Assembly: GCF_037024155.1 (NCBI RefSeq)
Contig: NZ_JAYKTS010000002.1
Coordinates: 182,373-206,372 of the forward strand
Direction of reading: 5' to 3'
From: Bacillus sp. 2205SS5-2
Lineage (GTDB): Bacteria > Bacillota > Bacilli > Bacillales > Bacillaceae_K
Length of the DNA: 24,000 nt
Shown piece after piece: positions 1,548-24,000 of this stretch. The notes under the pieces were generated by a model. The model was not told where the DNA came from. It worked only from the letters and a program-made list of their open reading frames with translations, and did no database searches. Each line of letters begins with the position of its first letter. The first letter of the stretch is position 1. The position numbers and the translations under genes were made by a program.

Positions 1548-3392
<1,845 letters not shown>

Positions 3393-3413: not shown

Positions 3414-3450
3414 GTCAAAGTCAGGAAGTTCTTGACTTTGGCTTTTTGTT
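3414..3450 (+). terminator. Intrinsic terminator downstream of dnaK
   Basis: A 12-bp stem pairs GTCAAAGTCAGG (3414-3425) with CTTGACTTTGGC (3431-3442). It includes two G-T wobble positions and a 5-nt loop, and is followed by TTTTTGTTT. Confidence 0.8.
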
Positions 3451-3452
3451 TA

Positions 3453-3635
3453 GGAAAAGCTCATTTCGTATACATTTTGGCTCTTTAGTCTAATTTTAGA
3501 TGGAATCCTCCAATTTGCAGTTGATACCCATCAAAGATAGACGAAAAGGTACCCGGAAACGAAGCGATATCACCGTTTATAGACTGAATCGAAGAACAAA
3601 ATCTTTGCGAAAACAGCCTTAGGAAAAAAGTGGAA
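3453..3635 (+). repeat. Contiguous copy of a ~185-bp A+C arm element (also present, split, at 17570-17660 plus 18020-18105)
   Basis: It aligns by eye with the phoH-pgpH gap. Left-side matches are AAAGCTCATTTCGTATACAT vs AAGGCTCTTTTCGCATACAT and TTGATACCCATCAAAGATAGACG vs TTGATTCCCATTAAAAATAGACG. Right-side matches are CCCGGAAACGAAGCGATATCACCGTTTATAGACTG vs CCCGAAACAAAGCTATATCACCGTTTATATACTG and CGAAAACAGCCTTAGGAAAAAAGTG vs CGAAAACAGCCTTTTGAAAAAAAGTG. The two ends are imperfect inverted repeats. Confidence 0.8.
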
Positions 3636-3656
3636 GAGGTAGTCACTTCAGCAGGG

Positions 3657-3899
3657 AGTCTTATCAAGCTGCAGTGGCTAAGGACTCGGGCATTTGTCAG
3701 CCCACTGCGTGAATCAAGATTCACTACGTGTTCTGCCAGATGCCTACCGTCCTAAAACAGCCACTTTCGCTTTTAGTCTTATCAAGCTGCAGTGGCTAAG
3801 GACTCGGGCATTTGTCAGCCCACTGCGTGAATCAAGATTCACTACGTGTTCTGTCAGATGCCTACCGTCCTAAAACAGCCACTTTCGCTTTTAGTCTTG
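3657..3899 (+). repeat. Tandem hairpin modules: 2 x 118 bp (3657-3774, 3775-3892) plus a 7-bp start of a third
   Basis: This is a direct head-to-tail repeat, 117/118 identical; the only difference is C3736 vs T3854. Each unit is an imperfect long hairpin closed by GCAGTGGCT...AGCCACT. A degenerate module tail (AGTCACTTCAGCAGGG, 3641-3656) precedes the array. Confidence 0.95.
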
Positions 3900-3962: not shown

Positions 3963-5081
3963 ATGAGTAAAAGGGATTATTACGAAGTATTAGGTTTGGG
4001 GAAAAGTGCTTCTCAAGATGAGATTAAAAAATCATATCGAAAACTCTCTAAAAAGTTCCATCCAGACATCAATAAAGAAGCGGATGCAAACGAGAAGTTT
4101 AAAGAAGTGAAAGATGCTTATGAAACGTTGAGTGATGAGCAAAAGCGCGCTCACTATGATCGCTATGGTCATACTGATCCAAATCAAGGGTTTGGTGGCG
4201 GAGGAGCTGCCGGTTTTGGCGGTTTTGAAGATATCTTTAATTCATTCTTCGGTGGTGGAGGCGGAAGACGCCGTGATCCTAATGCCCCACGTCAGGGAGC
4301 AGATCTTCAGTATACAATGACGTTAAGCTTTGAAGAAGCGGCTTTTGGGAAAGACACTGAAATAGATATACCAAATGAAGAAACGTGTGAAACTTGTAAG
4401 GGGAACGGCGCTAAACCAGGAACTAAGCCAGAAACATGTTCTCATTGTCAAGGAACAGGTCAATTAAATGTAGAACAAGATACGCCATTTGGTCGAATTG
4501 TTAATCGTCGGGTATGTAACCATTGCGATGGAACAGGACAAACGATTAAGCATAAATGTTCTACTTGTGGTGGAAAAGGAAAAGTAAGGAAACGCCGTAA
4601 AATTAGTGTGAAAGTGCCAGCAGGAATTGATGATGGTCAACAACTTCGTGTTACAGGTCAAGGTGAACCTGGAGTGAACGGAGGACCGGCCGGGGATTTA
4701 TATGTGGTATTCCATGTAAGAACGCATGATTTCTTTGAACGAGATGGTGACGATATTTATTGTGAAATGCCTTTACATTTTTCTCAAGCAACGCTAGGTG
4801 ACGAAATTCAAGTACCGACTCTTCATGGAAAAGTGAAGTTAAAAGTGCCAGCAGGAACGCAAACAGGCACACGTTTCCGCCTAAAAGGTAAAGGTGTACC
4901 AAATGTTAGAGGATACGGGCAAGGTGACCAGCACGTGATTGTGAAAGTTGTTACGCCAACCAAATTATCAGATAAACAAAAATCTTTATTGCGTGAGTTT
5001 GCTGATATCAGTGGCGGAATGCCCGATGAGCAGCATCACAGTATTTTTGACAAAGTAAAACGTGCCTTCAAAGGTGAATAA
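3963..5081 (+). CDS. dnaJ: Hsp40 co-chaperone DnaJ
   Basis: It has a J-domain with an HPD motif (KKFHPDINK), a G/F-rich linker and four CxxCxGxG zinc-finger repeats ([32 protein letters not shown]). Confidence 0.98.
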
Positions 5082-6827: not shown

Positions 6828-8183
6828 ATGCCGACTGTCGCTTTTCACACACTAGGCTGTAAAGTAAACCATTATGAAACTGAAGCGATTTGGCAGTTGT
6901 TTAAAGAAAATCAATATGATCGTGTTGATTTCGAAAAATCTTCAGATGTATACGTGATTAATACATGTACTGTTACGAATACTGGAGACAAAAAAAGCCG
7001 TCAAGTTATTCGTCGTGCGATTCGTAAGAATCCTGATGCGGTTATTTGTGTAACCGGCTGTTATGCCCAAACATCACCTGCCGAAATTATGGCGATTCCT
7101 GGTGTAGATATCGTCGTGGGTACACAAGATCGTCAGAAAATGTTAGCTTATATTGAACAATTTAAACAAGAACGAGAACCTATTAATGCGGTGAAAAACA
7201 TCATGAAGAATCGTGTGTATGAAGAGCTTGATGTTCCTGCATTCACTGACCGAACTAGAGCCTCTTTGAAAATCCAAGAAGGTTGCAACAATTTTTGTAC
7301 GTTTTGTATTATCCCATGGGCTCGTGGCTTAATGCGTTCTCGTGATCCAGAGGAAGTCATTCATCAAGCTCAGCAACTTGTGGATGCAGGCTATAAAGAA
7401 ATTGTACTTACTGGCATTCATACAGGTGGGTATGGGGAAGATATGAAGGATTATAACCTTGCTATGCTTCTAACTGATTTAGAAAAACAAGTAAATGGGT
7501 TGAAGAGAATTCGGATTTCTTCCATTGAAGCAAGCCAATTAACAGATGAAGTAATTGATGTAATTGATCGCTCTAAGCTGGTCGTACGCCATTTACATAT
7601 CCCATTGCAATCAGGTTCCAATACGGTGTTAAAACGTATGAGGAGAAAGTATACTATGGAATTCTTTGGTGAGCGCTTAGAAAAGTTAAAGAAAGCTCTA
7701 CCTGGTCTTGCGGTTACATCGGACGTTATCGTCGGTTTTCCTGGTGAAACAGAAGAAGAGTTCATGGAAACCTATGATTTTATAAAAAAACATCAATTTT
7801 CCGAACTTCATGTATTCCCTTACTCCAAACGTACCGGAACTCCTGCGGCAAGAATGGATGATCAAGTGGATGAAGAAATTAAAAATAAACGGGTACATGA
7901 ACTGATTGCCCTATCAAATCAGTTGGCGAAAGAGTATTGTTCTCTTTTTGAGGGAGAGGTTCTCGAAGTCATTCCTGAAGAAAAATTCAAAGGCGATGCA
8001 GAAAGTGGTTTATTTGAAGGATATTCAGATAACTACCTCAAAGTTGTATTTCCTGCAACCGAAGACATGGTTGGAAAGCTTGTAAAAGTTAAAATAACCA
8101 AAGCCGGCTATCCCTACAATGAAGGACAGTTTGTTCGCGTGTTAGAGGAAGATGAAAAGGAAGTACAAAAAGCGGTTATTTAA
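6828..8183 (+). CDS. mtaB: tRNA methylthiotransferase MtaB (YqeV), radical-SAM MTTase
   Basis: The 451-aa product has an N-terminal MTTase domain (FHTLGCKVNHYE), a radical-SAM CxxxCxxC motif (CNNFCTFC) and a C-terminal TRAM-like segment. It is the last gene of the heptacistronic dnaK operon arrangement known from B. subtilis. Confidence 0.9.
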   Translation: MPTVAFHTLGCKVNHYETEAIWQLFKENQYDRVDFEKSSDVYVINTCTVTNTGDKKSRQVIRRAIRKNPDAVICVTGCYAQTSPAEIMAIPGVDIVVGTQDRQKMLAYIEQFKQEREPINAVKNIMKNRVYEELDVPAFTDRTRASLKIQEGCNNFCTFCIIPWARGLMRSRDPEEVIHQAQQLVDAGYKEIVLTGIHTGGYGEDMKDYNLAMLLTDLEKQVNGLKRIRISSIEASQLTDEVIDVIDRSKLVVRHLHIPLQSGSNTVLKRMRRKYTMEFFGERLEKLKKALPGLAVTSDVIVGFPGETEEEFMETYDFIKKHQFSELHVFPYSKRTGTPAARMDDQVDEEIKNKRVHELIALSNQLAKEYCSLFEGEVLEVIPEEKFKGDAESGLFEGYSDNYLKVVFPATEDMVGKLVKVKITKAGYPYNEGQFVRVLEEDEKEVQKAVI

Positions 8184-8217: not shown

Positions 8218-8398
8218 GATTCAGTTAGCAAATGTGATTTTTAAAATGGTGGAAGTCTAGGTACTGACACCTTGCTCATTTCTTAGCTATCGTGTTTGAG
8301 AATCATAAAAAGGGTAACAATAAGGTAGAACTCGTCTTTTCGACGAGAATTTGTTATGATGAAGAGGTACATACAACTGAGTGAAAGGAGAGAAAAAT

Positions 8399-10144: not shown

Positions 10145-10216
10145 CCCTTTACAAATATGTATATGGACAAGTTTATGAGTAAATGATAATAATTAGGGAA
10201 GAATTTAGAATAGCTG

Positions 10217-10245
10217 TTGACCTTAACTCTTCCTTATATTATAAT
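10217..10245 (+). promoter_or_regulatory. Sigma-A promoter of rpsU-yqeY: TTGACC -17 nt- TATAAT
   Basis: TTGACC at 10217-10222 and TATAAT at 10240-10245 have an exact 17-nt spacer and lie about 75 nt upstream of the rpsU ATG. Confidence 0.7.
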
Positions 10246-10956: not shown

Positions 10957-10996
10957 AAAGACTGAGTAACAGCCTAGCTGTCGCTCAGTTTTTTTA
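10955..10996. terminator. Bidirectional intrinsic terminator between yqeY and the convergent SRPBCC gene
   Basis: The stem pairs ACTGAGTAACAGC (10961-10973) with GCTGTCGCTCAGT (10977-10989). It is flanked by AAAAA upstream and TTTTTT downstream. The T-run overlaps the stop codon of the minus-strand gene. Confidence 0.75.
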
Positions 10997-11443
10997 TTTT
11001 TCAGCTATTCTTTTCAACTCTTTTGCGCGATTTACAATAAAACGCCTCATATATTTTTCTAAAAATAATTTATCAGCTATTTTCCCGAAAATTCCAAAAG
11101 GAGATTTATACGAAAAGATGTCTATCATAAAAGTTCCAGTACCACTTTCTATAAAGTCGTGTCTATGCGTGAAAGAGTGGAATGCTCCTTTAACCATACC
11201 ATCTGTAAAGGTGTACGGTTTTTCCATCGTGATGATCCTAGCTGTTAAATTTTGTTTAACTCCAAAATGGATGGCTTCCCAAGTGACTGTATCCCCCATT
11301 TCCATCAGTCCAGTTGTAACACCACAAATAGCTCTTTCTTTCGTTCTGGTTGTTGTTTCTGTATGTACTTCTACGTTTCTCGCAAGGTCAAAACAAACAG
11401 TGAGTGGTTTTTCAATATAAATCTGGTGCTTAATAATAGGCAA
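10994..11443 (-). CDS. SRPBCC (START/Bet v1-like, polyketide-cyclase-fold) family protein, function unknown
   Basis: The 149-aa ORF has an apparent TTG start (complement of CAA 11441-11443) preceded by AAAGGG. The pattern of beta-strand-like segments and a C-terminal helix, including the FTHRHDF motif, resembles small SRPBCC proteins. This is family-level recognition from memory only. Confidence 0.55.
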   Translation of the reverse strand: MPIIKHQIYIEKPLTVCFDLARNVEVHTETTTRTKERAICGVTTGLMEMGDTVTWEAIHFGVKQNLTARIITMEKPYTFTDGMVKGAFHSFTHRHDFIESGTGTFMIDIFSYKSPFGIFGKIADKLFLEKYMRRFIVNRAKELKRIAEK

Positions 11444-11914
11444 GTGCTATCTACCCTTTCATTGGTGTAGGTTTAAAGACGTATAAACGTAAATGATCAA
11501 AGGTATCTGTCATTTACTAAACGCATGAAGATAATAGGAACTCTTTAACATTTTGCATTGTATTTTCGTTTTTGCAGATACAAACAAAAAGAAGGCGAAC
11601 AAAGAAACGGTCAAGTACGTTTTAGCCATACCTATAAAATGTCTTTTTATTGTATCATACGAGAATGTATACCGTTAATATTTTGAGCATGATAGATGGG
11701 TTTGAAAAGTGTTTACCTTAAATTGAATCTATCATGTTCTATACTTATTTCTACTGCATATTTTTTTGGTACTCCAAGCATTCATAACAAGCAATATTTC
11801 TGATGAAAGTATTTGACCATTGATATTTTTCACCTTGGATATTACGACACGCACTTATATGCAACTTCTGAAACGATTACTCGTGTCGACTTCTGCTGGT
11901 GAGAATTACCTAGT

Positions 11915-12098
11915 CAGTCGGCATGTCTTATGCTGGTCGCCGATAAACGGACACCTTGCGCTTTTCTTATTGTCTAGCTCCAGGTGCCATCGGCTCGAGG
12001 TCATAAGACAATCCGCCCAAAAGGTCAAAGGGCGACCATTCAGCCGGCATGTCTTATGCTGGTCGCCGATAAACGGACACCTTGCGCTTTTCTTATTA
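11915..12098 (+). repeat. Diverged hairpin-module array: one complete 126-bp unit (11973-12098) preceded by the 58-bp 3' part of another (11915-11972)
   Basis: The 58-bp direct repeat TCAG(T/C)CGGCATGTCTTATGCTGGTCGCCGATAAACGGACACCTTGCGCTTTTCTTATT occurs at 11915-11972 and 12041-12098 with 1 mismatch. The unit boundaries AGCTCCAGGTGCC...GGACACCTTGCGCTTTTCTTATT resemble the AGCTGCAGTGGCT...AGCCACTTTCGCTTTTAGTCTTAT boundaries of the 3657-3899 modules. Confidence 0.85.
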
Positions 12099-12111
12099 GA
12101 ATAAAGATAGT

Positions 12112-12141
12112 TGATGATTGTGTGTAAAAATAGATATAATG
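12112..12141 (+). promoter_or_regulatory. Weak candidate sigma-A promoter upstream of nfeD: TTGATG -18 nt- TATAAT
   Basis: TTGATG is at 12112-12117 and TATAAT at 12136-12141, starting 14 nt after the repeat array ends. Motif match only. Confidence 0.3.
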
Positions 12142-12185
12142 TAAGAGTAAGGATTCAAAAAAATAATAAAGAACTGAATGTTTTC

Positions 12186-12211
12186 GAAACTTATTTCTTT
12201 TTTTACCGTAA
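12186..12211 (+). promoter_or_regulatory. Candidate ECF sigma-W-type promoter for nfeD-floA-yqfB: CGAAAC -16 nt- CGTA
   Basis: GAAAC at 12187-12191 and CGTA at 12208-12211 have a 16-nt T-rich spacer and lie about 45 nt upstream of ATG 12257. The B. subtilis sigma-W consensus is TGAAAC-N16-CGTA, and the orthologous yqeZ-yqfA-yqfB operon is a known sigma-W regulon member. The first -35 base here is C, not T. Confidence 0.45.
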
Positions 12212-12256
12212 GAGATAAATAACTAGATAAAATAGTTGAGGGGAGGTGTGTAAACC

Positions 12257-16582: not shown

Positions 16583-17538
16583 CAGAAAAGTTAAAAACCA
16601 TCAATATCTCATTAGAAGACACAAATCAAGCTGTTGCTCTTTTTGGCACAGGTGATACCCATTTAAAAATTATTGAAGAAGCATTGCATGTCACTATCAC
16701 TTCTCGTGGAGGAGATATCTATGTTTCGGGTGATGAAAGTAATGTCAAAAATACAAACAAAGTACTTTCAACATTACTTAAAGTAATCAAAAAAGGCATC
16801 AACATCGGTCCTAGAGATGTGTTATATGCTACCCAACTCGTTAACCAGGGCATAGTAGAGTATATGGTGGATTTATATGAAGAAGAAATCACCAAAAATG
16901 CCAAAGGTCAAACCATTCGAGTGAAAACATTAGGCCAGCGCCATTATATTTCAGCCATTAAAAAGAGTGATTTGGTTTTTGGAATTGGACCAGCTGGGAC
17001 AGGAAAAACATATCTTGCCGTTGTCATGGCTATCCGTGCACTGAAAAATGGAGAAGTTAAGAAAATTATATTAACACGCCCAGCTGTTGAAGCAGGAGAG
17101 AGTCTAGGTTTTTTACCAGGTGATTTAAAGGAAAAAGTCGATCCGTATTTGCGTCCGTTATATGATGCCTTACATGATGTTTTAGGCGCAGAGCATACAG
17201 AAAGATTGATTGATAGAGGAACGATTGAAATAGCTCCTCTTGCCTATATGAGAGGCCGTACCCTAGATGATGCATTTGTAATTTTGGATGAAGCTCAGAA
17301 TACAACTAGTGCTCAAATGAAAATGTTTTTAACGCGCTTAGGATTTGGTTCAAAAATGGTCATTACTGGCGACCCTACTCAGTTTGATTTACCAAAAGGC
17401 GTTCAGTCCGGATTAGTTCAATCAACCACGATTTTAAAAGATGTAAAAGGGATTTCGATAATTGTATTAGAGCAAGGGGACGTAGTACGGCATCCACTAG
17501 TGGCGAAAGTTATTACGGCTTATCAAAATCAAGGATAA
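16579..17538 (+). CDS. phoH: PhoH-family ATPase (YqfE)
   Basis: The 319-aa product has Walker A GPAGTGKT, Walker B-like ILDEAQN and GDPTQ. Its ATG overlaps the yqfD stop (ATGA, 16579-16582). Confidence 0.95.
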   Translation: MTEKLKTINISLEDTNQAVALFGTGDTHLKIIEEALHVTITSRGGDIYVSGDESNVKNTNKVLSTLLKVIKKGINIGPRDVLYATQLVNQGIVEYMVDLYEEEITKNAKGQTIRVKTLGQRHYISAIKKSDLVFGIGPAGTGKTYLAVVMAIRALKNGEVKKIILTRPAVEAGESLGFLPGDLKEKVDPYLRPLYDALHDVLGAEHTERLIDRGTIEIAPLAYMRGRTLDDAFVILDEAQNTTSAQMKMFLTRLGFGSKMVITGDPTQFDLPKGVQSGLVQSTTILKDVKGISIIVLEQGDVVRHPLVAKVITAYQNQG

Positions 17539-17569
17539 CCTGAATATATTATTCAGGTTTTTCTTTTTG
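17537..17569 (+). terminator. Intrinsic terminator downstream of phoH
   Basis: AACCTGAAT (17537-17545) pairs with ATTCAGGTT (17551-17559) around a 5-nt loop, followed by TTTCTTTTT. Confidence 0.8.
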
Positions 17570-17660
17570 AAAGGCTCTTTTCGCATACATTGTGGCTATT
17601 TCATCTGGTTTTTGATTAAATCGCCCATTTCCATGTTGATTCCCATTAAAAATAGACGGA
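17570..17660 (+). repeat. Arm A of the A/C element (left half; homolog of 3453-~3547)
   Basis: See the alignment blocks listed for 3453-3635. It ends with AAAAATAGACGGA immediately before the first hairpin module. Confidence 0.8.
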
Positions 17661-18019
17661 TCTAGCTGCAGTGACTAGCAGCTATGGGACAAATGTTATC
17701 CAACTCCAAAGGTCAGGACCTTCTCCGTTGGATAACATTTGCCCGCCGCTGCTGGGCGAGCCACTTCCGCATTTCGTGATCCAGCTGCAGTGGCTAGGGA
17801 CTCGGGCATTTGTCAGCCCACTACGTGAAGCAGGCTTCACTGCGTGTACTGCCAGATGCCTGCCGTCCCAGGGCAGCCACTTCCGCATTTCTCTGATCCA
17901 GCTGCAGTGGCTTGCGGCTCGGGGTCAAATGAATAACCCTCCAGCGATGCAGGCATCACCTCCGAGTTCTTCATTTGCCTGACGCCGCAGGACAGCCACT
18001 TCCGCATTTCGTAAATGAT
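17661..18019 (+). repeat. Three contiguous hairpin modules (17661-17780, 17781-17897, 17898-~18019)
   Basis: Each unit opens with AGCTGCAGTG(A/G)CT and closes with AGCCACTTCCGCATTTC. The middle unit is a close relative of the 118-bp units at 3657-3892. The outer units have different but equally self-complementary interiors (for example GGGACAAATGTTATCCAAC with GTTGGATAACATTTGCCC, and GGTCAAATGAA with TTCATTTGCC). Confidence 0.9.
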
Positions 18020-18105
18020 GCCCGAAACAAAGCTATATCACCGTTTATATACTGGTGCGAACAGCAACAAACTTTACGAAAACAGCCTTTTGAAAAAAAG
18101 TGAAA
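18020..18105 (+). repeat. Arm C of the A/C element (right half; homolog of ~3552-3635)
   Basis: The sequence CCCGAAACAAAGCTATATCACCGTTTATATACTG...CTTTACGAAAACAGCCTTTTGAAAAAAAGTGAA matches 3552-3635 block for block. Confidence 0.8.
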
Positions 18106-18180
18106 TTTTCGAGGAAAACTGTTATGATTTTACATAATTAACGTTATTGTACCTATCATATAGGGATAGGAAGGAGACCT

Positions 18181-20346
18181 ATGAATCAACTATTAGTAAA
18201 AATAAAGGAACTTATAAGCTTTAAAGTTTTCACAGGGATCATTTTCTTATTTCTCGGTTTCATTTTATACGGCCTTTTAATTAGTAATGTTCAGACAGAA
18301 ACGTATAATCTCGAATTATTTGAAGTGGCGAAAGAGACAATCTACTCACCTACAACAAAAGAAGATGAAGAAAAAACAGAACAACTAAAACAAAAGGCTG
18401 CTGAAGAAGTAGAACCTGTTTATGAGTATTCCCCAGACGTAAAAGAGAATCGAAAAAGTTTAATTACGTCAGTTTTTGATATGATTTTACAGATTCAGCA
18501 GGAGAGTAACTTTTCTTCACCACAATTAGAAGAACCTGAGCAAAATGAAGAAGTTAAACCATTAACGCCAAAAGAACGTTTAAACAAATTAAAATCTCGT
18601 TTAACTAAGGATGCCAATGAAAATGTGACTCTATCTATATCCGATCAAGTTTTTGAATCACTACTTGTAGCTGAGAAGGAAGAAATCCTATCAGCTCAGC
18701 GGATTGTTGTTGATGAAATCGAAAAGGTAATGGCAAAAAAAATTAGAGATGAAGGAGTCCCACAAGTAAAAGATGAGATTGAATCAAATATTGAATTAAA
18801 TAATCTCTCTCAACCTGTTAAAGAATCCTCGATTGCTATAGGGCGTTATGCTATTATTTCAAATGAAAAATACAGCGAAGAACTTACGAAAAAGAAAATC
18901 GAAGTCGTAATGGAAGAAGTAACTCCTGAACGAATTCTCGAAGGGACTGTTATTGTAGAAGCAGGGGATATTATTAGTGCGGAACAATATCGAAAGTTAA
19001 AGCTGGTAAATTTATTAAACGAGGAAAGTTCGAGTCGGGCACCTATTGGGCTAGCATTATTTGTTGCGATGGTGGTGTCTATTCTATATGTTTACTTCTA
19101 TAAATGGCAGATATCTGAAGAAAAAAAGCAGAATTACGTCATTTTATTGAGCCTAATCTTCGTATTGACCCTGCTCTTGATGAAGATTTTTGCATTATTG
19201 CAAGTGCTAGACATTATGGAGGTAGGCTACTTATTTCCGGCAGCTATGGCAACAATGCTCATTAGACTCTTATTAAATGAACGACTCTCGTTAATCATGT
19301 CCATATTATTAGCGGTATGCGGTAGTATTATATTTCATGAAAGCGTAGCTGGAAGTTTTAATATTGAAATTGCGATTTACTTTCTTTTTAGTGGATTAAT
19401 GGGGACGATTATTCTTTCCAAGCAAAATCAACGTTTATCCATTCTACAAACAGGGATTATTGTATCATTATTGAATATTATTATAATTTTCTTTATTGTT
19501 TTATTAGGATCAAATCCTTATGAAAATATGAATTATCTGTATTTATTACTTTACGCGTTTGGATCTGGCATAACTTCTGCCGTATTGACAATAGGTTTTC
19601 TTCCTTTCTTTGAGGCGGGATTTGGAATTCTTTCCACGATGAGATTGGTGGAGTTATCCAATCCAAATCATCCCCTATTAAAAAGAATCCTAACCGAGGC
19701 TCCAGGAACGTATCATCATAGTGTCATGGTGGCGAATTTAGCTGAGGCAGCGTGTGAAGCGATTGGAGCAAATGGACTTTTAGCTCGAGTTGGTTGTTAT
19801 TACCATGATATCGGAAAAACAAAAAGACCACATTTCTTTATTGAAAATCAAATGAATGGTCCGAATCCTCATGATCGTATTTCACCTGAGAGGAGTCGTG
19901 ATATTATTATTGCACATGCTGTTGATGGGGGAGAGCTCCTTAGAAAATACAAAATGCCCAAAGAATTTATCGACATTGCGGAGCAGCATCATGGCACGAC
20001 TTTTTTGAAATTCTTTTATCATAAAGCAAAAGAAACACGAAATGAAGTAAAAGAGGATGATTACCGGTATCCGGGACCAAAGCCTCAAAGTAAAGAGATT
20101 GCGGTTATTTCGATTGCTGATAGCGTTGAAGCGGCAGTCCGATCAATGGACCATCCTACGAAAGAAAAAATCGAGAAAATTGTGTCTTCTATTATTCAAG
20201 ATAGATTATTGGATGGCCAGTTTAATGAATGCGATATTACGTTACAAGAATTAGAAATTGTTAAAGAAACACTGTGTAATGCATTAAATGGCATTTTTCA
20301 TTCAAGAATAGAATATCCCGAGGATAAAAAGGAGAATGACTTATGA
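18181..20346 (+). CDS. pgpH: Membrane 7TM-HD cyclic-di-AMP phosphodiesterase PgpH (YqfF)
   Basis: The 721-aa product has an N-terminal TM helix plus an extracellular domain, then a 7-TM block and a C-terminal HD domain ([24 protein letters not shown]). The RBS is GGAAGGAGA. Confidence 0.92.
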
Positions 20347-23960: not shown

Positions 23961-24000
23961 ATTCGTAATCCAGCTGCAGTGGCTCTGAGGCTCGGGCAAA
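23961..24000 (+). repeat. 5' part of a further hairpin module, truncated by the window edge
   Basis: ATTCGTAATCCAGCTGCAGTGGCTCTGAGGCTCGGGCAAA matches the inter-module junction consensus CATTTCGTGATCCAGCTGCAGTGGCT-n6-CTCGGG seen at 17770-17810. Confidence 0.8.

Follow-up and report, generated by a model that had tools for sequence, protein, structure and literature searches.

The stretch of DNA analyzed here, hereafter the window, comprises 24,000 nucleotides of Bacillus sp. 2205SS5-2 (contig NZ_JAYKTS010000002.1, positions 182,373 to 206,372) and covers a conserved Bacillaceae region with the gene order hrcA-grpE-dnaK-dnaJ-prmA-...-rpsU-yqeY-...-yqfD-phoH-pgpH-ybeY-dgkA-cdd-era-recO. The feature in question lies in the 642-bp gap between phoH, which ends at 17538, and pgpH, which starts at 18181. 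An initial annotation had placed in this gap a clean phoH terminator followed by repeat parts, namely an arm A, three contiguous hairpin modules and an arm C, and had likened the whole to the mosaic BOX and BIME elements. The parts list was borne out: a terminator-like hairpin with a T-run closes phoH, and the two halves of a MITE (miniature inverted-repeat transposable element) together with three hairpin units, H1 to H3, fill most of the spacer (Table 1). The mosaic interpretation was not, in that arms A and C form a self-contained MITE and hairpin units occur free of both arms in about 70 other loci. Because the units are found without arms and in a different host element, the locus represents, with high probability, the nested insertion of one repeat family into another: a MITE split by a three-unit hairpin array.

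The MITE arms and the hairpin array of the phoH-pgpH gap

When arms A and C were joined, the resulting 154-bp sequence aligned end to end with an intact paralogue in the dnaK-dnaJ gap at 78% identity, and the sole gap in the alignment, of 2 nt, fell exactly at the site of the array. The same alignment shifted the annotated arm boundaries slightly, from 17570-17660 to 17573-17658 for A and from 18020-18105 to 18011-18087 for C. The terminal inverted repeats (GGCTCTTTTCGCATAC against the reverse complement GGCTGTTTTCGTAAAG) recur at the ends of the dnaK-dnaJ copy and of a copy in the phoH-pgpH gap of Falsibacillus albus, in both of which A runs into C without hairpin units. The MITE is 154-161 bp long, contains no transposase, and in all three copies is flanked by a perfect 8-bp duplication (TTTTGAAA here, TTAGGAAA in the dnaK-dnaJ gap and TTTTATTA in F. 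albus). Inspection of the orthologous spacer in relatives for empty sites, proposed with the initial annotation, identified an uninterrupted MITE target (CTTTATGAAATAAAG) in B. spongiae, the nearest relative by PhoH outside the source strain (84% identity), with the phoH terminator and the promoter-like site for pgpH conserved on either side. A MITE, putatively derived from an IS1595-like insertion sequence, transposed into TTTTGAAA in the interval that separates the phoH terminator from the promoter of pgpH, duplicating its 8-bp target, and the three hairpin units lie exactly in its middle.

The proposed IS1595 parentage draws on a single, weak match (E = 3e-3): over 72 nt, arm C shares 75% identity with an IS1595-family insertion sequence annotated on a Niallia plasmid, at the end proximal to the transposase; that insertion sequence also ends ...GCGAAAACAGCC. 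An inverted repeat starting with GGCTCTT and an 8-bp duplication are also typical of ISL3 elements (e.g. ISArsp7), so the parent family is not certain, and an ISL3 origin, considered from the GGCTCTT ends, was retained only as the alternative. Insertion of the array at a hairpin apex was dropped as a structural target because the intact MITE does not fold significantly (z = -0.9). Metagenome contigs carry further copies or ends of the A+C type (L138 2167-2355; L046 ~10213-10240), one of them about 80 bp from a hairpin unit.

The hairpin units, each of about 118 nt, are contiguous at 17659-18010 with start-to-start distances of 119 and 117 nt, in agreement with the module lengths of 120, 117 and about 122 bp first reported. 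Each opens with AGCTGCAGTG(A/G)CT (17664, 17783 and 17900), closes with AGCCACTTCCGCATTTC (17775, 17891 and 18010) and folds into one long hairpin, with z-scores relative to dinucleotide shuffles of -3.1 to -5.8 on the plus strand and -3.3 to -7.1 on the minus strand; the fixed openings and closings, the fold-back of every module and a G+C content near 60% in the middle one had all been noted correctly. On a covariance model built mostly from the units of other genomes, H1 to H3 score 84-103 bits (E = 3e-19 to 5e-24), which excludes chance. Across the array (17664-18010) the units share an outer helix specific to it and a 3' box variant, CGCATTTC, with A where the family has T, and their interiors are unrelated; shared ends around unrelated interiors suggest that the ends have undergone gene conversion or that interiors have been exchanged. 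The three units end in CCGCAUUUCG and have a degraded U-tract (CGCAUUUCG); none was called by the terminator scan. A GTG-start open reading frame (ORF) of 103 aa (17671-17982) spans all three units; it has no Pfam match, is probably spurious and may be picked up by gene callers.

A single modular element that moves as a whole, with A and C as terminal modules and H as a variable central module, would also yield inverted repeats on the arms around a variable-number tandem array, as in pneumococcal BOX, which has the structure boxA-boxBn-boxC (PMC3049150), and the copy at 3458-3618 that lacks the central module would correspond to the A1C1 BOX elements. We consider this very improbable. Hairpin units stand without A or C at three other sites in the window as well as in the roughly 70 loci of other genomes; those in the dnaK-dnaJ gap lie outside the target duplication of the MITE beside them; F. 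albus has A-C without H, and A-C is similar to the end of an insertion sequence of the IS1595 family; and hairpin units have inserted into a different host element with an empty site. Moreover, H modules from one array resemble each other no more than random members of the family do, whereas copies of boxB are alike.

Table 1. Features of the phoH-pgpH gap, further repeat copies in the window, and loci of related elements on other contigs. Positions without a locus name are those of the window.
Feature	Position	Strand	Score	Remarks
phoH intrinsic terminator	17537..17569	+		stem-loop AACCTGAATATATTATTCAGGTT + T-run; terminator scan; hairpin + T-run conserved in B. spongiae
Target-site duplication, left copy, 8 bp	17565..17572	.		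TTTTGAAA; direct repeat; B. spongiae empty site
Arm A, left half of IS1595-like MITE	17573..17658	+		left terminal inverted repeat GGCTCTTTTCGCATAC; 78% identical to left half of copy 3458-3618
Hairpin unit H1	17659..17778	+	89-96 bits	head GATCT; 5' box AGCTGCAG at 17664; 3' box CTTCCGCATTTC ending 17775
Hairpin unit H2	17779..17895	+		5' box 17783; 3' box ends 17891; 60% G+C; 74% identical to dnaK-gap units
Hairpin unit H3	17896..18010	+	103 bits	5' box 17900; 3' box ends 18010
Arm C, right half of MITE	18011..18087	+		right terminal inverted repeat ...TACGAAAACAGCC; alignment to intact paralogue
Target-site duplication, right copy, 8 bp	18088..18095	.		TTTTGAAA; direct repeat; B. spongiae empty site
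Promoter-like site for pgpH	18100..18128	+		GTGAAA-17-TATGAT with TG; outside insertion; conserved in B. spongiae
Intact A+C MITE paralogue, dnaK-dnaJ gap	3458..3618	+		8-bp duplication TTAGGAAA at 3450-3457 and 3619-3626
Possible degenerate 3' fragment before dnaK-gap units	~3640-3661			
Two tandem hairpin units, dnaK-dnaJ gap	3662..3897	+		99% identical to each other; ~40 nt downstream of intact MITE, outside its duplication
Solitary 3' fragment of hairpin unit	8246..8285	+	8.5 bits (weak)	...CTGACACCTTGCTCATTTC; just 3' of mtaB terminator
5'-truncated hairpin unit, then full unit	11914..12096	+	123 bits	truncated 11914-11971; full 11972-12096
Start of hairpin unit	23967..24000	+		AATCC AGCTGCAGTGGCT...; cut by window end; downstream of recO terminator
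Long-subfamily hairpin units	L010 1898-2051; L035 2968-3120; L046 8023-8171; L048 3386-3661; L082; L094; L134; L138			
Second palindromic element, empty	L081 7085-7215			
Second palindromic element, filled	L119 11935-12220; L007 ~4600-4880; L009 ~7130-7450; L027/L053/L073			carries hairpin unit

Distribution, anatomy and folding strand of the hairpin units

The window alone contains the hairpin family at five intergenic sites, which confirms the suspected interspersed family. Using the covariance model, we collected at least 112 units, at least 102 of them distinct, from at least 75 loci in named genomes and metagenomes, the metagenome counts being lower bounds; nearly all of these units lack the A and C arms. 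In a pattern scan of one genome per species, six named species matched, and matches were located in Mesobacillus maritimus, Cytobacillus gottheilii, Bacillus mesophilum, B. marasmi (5 loci), Alkalihalophilus marmarensis, an Enterococcus and two metagenome-assembled genomes. No hairpin units were found in the syntenic 21 kb of B. spongiae or in the syntenic region of F. albus. The family has no counterpart in Rfam 15, which gave no match at the gathering score in the window; a search of 17500-18200 with E up to 10 returned only chance-level matches plus a single weak one, below threshold at 24.9 bits (gathering score 97), on the phoH terminator hairpin, outside the units. In eight loci with canonical units, Rfam matched nothing over the units and identified only tRNAs, a purine riboswitch and an L19 leader. 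Canonical units had no match among the PLSDB plasmids, where the whole gap was matched only via the MITE arm, and six pattern matches in viral contigs were all attributable to chance by the model (10-14 bits). A literature search by sequence and keywords found no description of the family, which does not prove that none exists. The hairpin units apparently constitute a widespread and undescribed Bacillaceae repeat family.

A unit is about 118-125 nt long and has near-invariant ends, TGTC-Y-AGCTGCAG ... CTTCCGCTTTTC, that enclose a long, imperfect stem (31 consensus pairs, with stems up to ~50 bp) in which the interior sequence is free and the pairing conserved. The unpaired head, which was absent from the search pattern, is TGTC in 78 of 102 units, GATC in 12 (including the phoH-pgpH array) and CGTC in three. 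The 3' box, CTTCCGC(T/A)TTTC, is followed by a further 3-4 nt and pairs with the 5' box at 6 of 8 box positions, leaving two fixed pyrimidine-pyrimidine mismatches. RNAalifold, run on a MAFFT alignment, detected compensatory changes in 27 of the 31 pairs. Among 96 units, 93% of the alignment cells are paired, compared with 67% after shuffling and 30-53% with slid partners, and 30 of the 31 pairs change on both sides, although this alignment was fitted to the model and therefore leans towards the structure. Compensatory changes are likewise seen in helix 2 of the full unit in the pair at 11914-12096 (AGGTGCC...GGACACCT).

Variants with the same ends are either longer (145-300 nt) or internally deleted (37-74 nt). 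The long forms include a subfamily of 145-200 nt that combines the same 5' and 3' boxes with a different conserved interior (…CGACTAG…ACGATAAGTCAAC…TTTATCTCAGT…). The yqeY-nfeD gap of the window (10957-12256) measures 1.3 kb here versus 225 bp in B. spongiae, and holds a 149-aa ORF, about 450 bp of AT-rich DNA and then hairpin units; the ORF (10994-11443, minus strand) was considered as a small transposase and rejected, having no Pfam match.

The pairs are 91% Watson-Crick, with 38 G.T pairs on the strand read here versus 69 on its complement. Of the 102 units, 94 fold better on the complement (mean -54.4 vs -48.4 kcal/mol, p = 5e-17), as do all nine units tested with DNA parameters; this better-folding strand lacks a U-run and is antisense to every gene in this window. 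On the strand as read, canonical units end ...CCGC UUUUCUU(U/A)U behind a GC-closed stem. Orientation relative to flanking genes, which had appeared uniform at first (7/7), was 15:11 in the larger sample. Taken together, the strand, pairing and orientation data suggest that what is constrained during propagation is a folded DNA strand and not a host RNA.

The genomic setting of the units bears on the same question. Convergent gaps hold units more often than divergent ones (13 vs 6), and in at least 15 loci the 3' end of a unit lies 0-7 nt from an opposite-strand stop codon or tRNA 3' end. Units also interleave with opposite-strand tRNA genes (L011 2189-2714; L085 509-1091), their 3' ends 0-4 nt from the tRNA 3' ends, so that transcription of the tRNA precursors would run directly on into the hairpin in reverse complement. 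This preference for gene 3' ends, the strong covariation, the change of arrays by whole units between boxes, and a GC-closed stem plus U-tract in which the 3' boundary of the inserted segment lies ~9 nt past the stem, are what one would expect of host-selected RNA elements (terminators, stabilizer hairpins of 3' untranslated regions (3'-UTRs), or small RNA genes) that multiply by local duplication and recombination. We nevertheless regard this as unlikely. G.U pairs are scarce (1.3%), and the U-tract strand has fewer of them than its complement, which is the strand that folds better; orientation relative to flanking genes is near random; and the U-tract in the window is degraded, with no unit flagged as a terminator. 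The interior sequence is not conserved and hence provides no binding or seed region, and a promoter scan found no promoter-like site within the H1-H3 array. Furthermore, one precise insertion of a unit is located within another repeat, and all five window sites are missing in the nearest relative. Canonical units would still resemble long-stem terminators in one orientation.

Arrays, insertion and proposed modes of propagation

A filled and an empty site were identified in loci L119 and L081, whose flanks are 90% identical and which differ by exactly one unit, TGTCC...CGCTTTTCCTTC, with an ambiguity of at most 1-2 nt and no target duplication. The unit ends, TGTCYAGCTGCAG and CTTCCGCTTTTCNNN, form no terminal inverted repeats. 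The host in this pair is a different palindromic element with inverted repeats, whose copies in B. marasmi and on other contigs carry a unit at the same position as well. This second palindromic element (of the GTTGATTTCCGC...GCGGAGTCAATCAAC type, ~130 bp) is dispersed in B. marasmi and metagenome contigs and repeatedly carries a hairpin unit at one internal position, GGAGCC|TCCTCG.

Arrays consist of 1-5 units arranged head-to-tail and joined by 2-4 nt linkers. The variable module number anticipated by the initial annotation is also seen between species: an orthologous locus has three units in C. gottheilii and two in B. mesophilum, an exact one-unit indel with breakpoints inside the conserved 3' box. 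Adjacent units are no more alike than random family members (identity 0.74 vs 0.70), and most arrays are therefore not recent tandem duplications. Units are intergenic and most often lie just 3' of a hairpin plus T-run that belongs to an intrinsic terminator or forms the 3' end of another unit; a terminator-like hairpin with its T-run was located just upstream in the sense direction of 13 of 69 arrays and downstream of three. Insertion 3' of such structures, including the ends of other units, explains head-to-tail arrays of unlike units.

These observations make it likely that the hairpin units are mobile DNA. As an explanation of the whole feature we favor, with moderate confidence, two independent families of selfish, non-coding repeats, one nested in the other, the hairpin units being probably non-autonomous and moved in trans. 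Neither an ORF nor a conserved neighbor gene was associated with the units in the flanks covered. More tentatively, and short of an even chance in our estimation, the units would travel single-stranded and folded, in the form of the strand complementary to that read here, on which an enzyme would recognize the mismatched stem base; the best guess for such an enzyme would be an HUH- or tyrosine-type single-strand transposase or a rolling-circle enzyme. As a side effect on the host, a unit may add a terminator-like hairpin or, when inserted in the opposite orientation, a hairpin within a 3'-UTR.

Several observations weigh against this explanation. The conservation of the boxes is partly by construction, since the collection scans required both, although extra units detected by the model alone, in loci already collected, also keep both boxes. 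There is a single clean filled/empty pair for a lone unit, and the indel between C. gottheilii and B. mesophilum is equally well explained by unequal recombination between boxes. No T-run precedes the insertion point in the MITE (ATAGACG|G) or in the other host element (GGAGCC|TCC), which makes the terminator target a tendency, not a law. Orientation is only weakly biased, 28:15 relative to GC skew and 15:11 relative to genes in co-directional gaps. The better-folding strand is mostly on the leading-strand template, unlike in IS200/IS605-type elements, from which the units also differ in having one hairpin, not two subterminal ones. Finally, the flanks of the 75 loci (~4-7 kb) yielded no candidate mobilizing enzyme among recurrent neighbors, with no RAYT, integrase, reverse transcriptase or Rep. 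The neighbors are housekeeping genes: all-against-all clustering of 559 flanking ORFs recovered only ABC ATPases, HAD hydrolases, SpoIIE, PBP, DegV and similar proteins.

The margins of the arrays are asymmetric. A 3' box precedes 31 of 72 arrays, and 25 of these leaders lack a matching 5' box, being either 5'-truncated units (12 to ~90 nt) or short terminator-like box palindromes. A 5' box follows only five of the 72 arrays, and these are mostly full-length long variants; 3'-truncated units are thus essentially absent. The short palindromes, which are perfect and combine the 3' box with its complement (GAAAAGCGGAAGCGCC-loop-GGCGCTTCCGCTTTTC), stand directly upstream of units (L035 ~7725-7760, L116 ~880-911, L026 ~3000-3035); they resemble bidirectional terminators and could be an ancestor, a target or a snap-back product of the hairpin family.

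A fixed 3' end with a ragged 5' end, the scarcity of 3'-truncated units and insertion without target duplication are consistent with a retro-element like a short interspersed element (SINE) or with a rolling-circle product, units or entire arrays being copied from the fixed 3' end by reverse transcription of a terminated transcript or by rolling-circle copying on the complementary strand, with the 5'-truncated leaders as incomplete copies; the unit's 3' boundary is the point where an intrinsic terminator would release RNA, and the perfect 3'-box palindromes resemble snap-back or twin-priming products. Such an origin appears quite unlikely, given that no reverse transcriptase or Rep gene was found near any unit in the flanks, the unit carries no promoter, and folding is better on the strand complementary to the putative transcript. 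Since a truncated leader usually shares its type with a unit that follows, secondary deletion or unequal exchange within arrays can explain these leaders, and the short palindromes may be native bidirectional terminators. A related and more specific proposal, to which we give little credence, is that the units are a novel class of non-autonomous bacterial element, a single hairpin of ~120 nt with fixed, mismatched ends and in effect a SINE- or Helitron-like terminator parasite, which would seek out the 3' foot of hairpins followed by a T-run, both intrinsic terminators and its own tail, and be copied from its fixed 3' end; such copying, by rolling circle or reverse transcription, would leave 5'-truncated leaders and build head-to-tail arrays of unrelated units.

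The asymmetric stem base with two fixed mismatches, the conservation of structure over sequence and the single better-folding strand also recall the bottom strands of integron attC sites, and arrays often comprise n units plus one extra leading 3' box, as if a recombinase had integrated them at a conserved junction. That the units are site-specific recombination sites of this kind is, in our judgment, highly implausible: the stem base has no R''/R' cores (RYYYAAC / GTTRRRY), no cassettes or ORFs lie between hairpins, no integrase was found in the flanks, the leading fragments vary in length without a fixed core, and the empty site of the filled/empty pair has no core-like sequence.

Comparison with known repeat systems

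Proteobacteria (REP, BIME, REPIN, ERIC) and streptococci (BOX, RUP, SPRITE) have small palindromic repeats that are well studied; to our knowledge, such repeats have been little studied in the spore-forming Bacillaceae beyond the B. cereus group. The hairpin family is easy to model and offers a tractable system for finding a mobilizing enzyme. Its asymmetric fixed ends, duplication-free insertion, preference for the terminator foot, mixed arrays and better-folding strand fit neither of two standard mechanisms, neither DDE-transposed MITEs nor RAYT-mobilized REPs. The units also allow one to ask how hairpins alter termination and 3'-UTR stability in the dnaK-dnaJ and phoH-pgpH operons, and the covariance model could annotate repeats that are otherwise a source of spurious ORFs such as that at 17671-17982.

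ERIC/IRU elements, ~127-bp imperfect palindromes of enterobacteria, share with Correia and RUP elements a layout in which the whole element is one long imperfect hairpin, intergenic and co-transcribed, with terminal inverted repeats, to which Correia and RUP add target duplications and a cognate insertion sequence. The units described here resemble them in size, in forming one long hairpin and in being intergenic and co-transcribed, but differ in their asymmetric ends, lack of duplication and head-to-tail arrays. Integron attC sites and the ends of IS200/IS605 (IS608-type) elements are folded single-strand substrates that insert without duplication, and IS200/IS605-type elements have no inverted repeats, hairpins near both ends and a strong bias to the lagging-strand template. 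The units resemble both in conserving structure over sequence, in their conserved, asymmetric stem base, in having one strand that folds better and in inserting without duplication, and the latter also in the absence of inverted repeats; they differ from both in showing no strong replication-strand bias (28:15).

In niche and function the units recall REP, BIME, REPIN and ERIC elements. Like the first three, they are intergenic, multi-copy and palindromic, keep their pairing by compensatory change, cluster at gene 3' ends, and have an unpaired tetranucleotide head beside the stem, a short unpaired tail and no target duplication. TGTC, the prevailing head here, is a common variant of the tag in the CGTC-tagged palindromic repeats, which have no linked transposase and are not reported in Bacillota (Di Nocera et al. 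2013, PMC3733652); this is a match in tag letters and does not imply homology. The units are, however, much larger (118-125 nt with stems of ~45-50 bp, versus 20-40 nt with stems of 5-13 bp) and strictly head-to-tail, whereas head-to-tail REP dimers are rare and BIMEs alternate in orientation. They further differ from REPs in their fixed 8-nt and 12-nt end boxes with two invariant mismatches, their Bacillota hosts and the lack of a RAYT in the flanks.

Arms A and C, for their part, match the IS1595 family in the 8-bp target duplication, the terminal inverted repeats and the sequence of arm C, and differ from it in their length of 154-161 bp and lack of a transposase, the assignment resting on one match (E = 3e-3). 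BOX, RUP and SPRITE are reported to insert into one another (PMC3049150), and the composite described here resembles BOX in this mutual insertion of families, in arms whose inverted repeats resemble an insertion-sequence end, in its variable central tandem array and in its intergenic location with enrichment in convergent gaps. It differs from BOX in that the central units are an autonomous family, almost always armless, in which each unit is one long hairpin and the members of an array are unlike, and in that the two arms together make up an entire MITE, which has an 8-bp duplication of its own.

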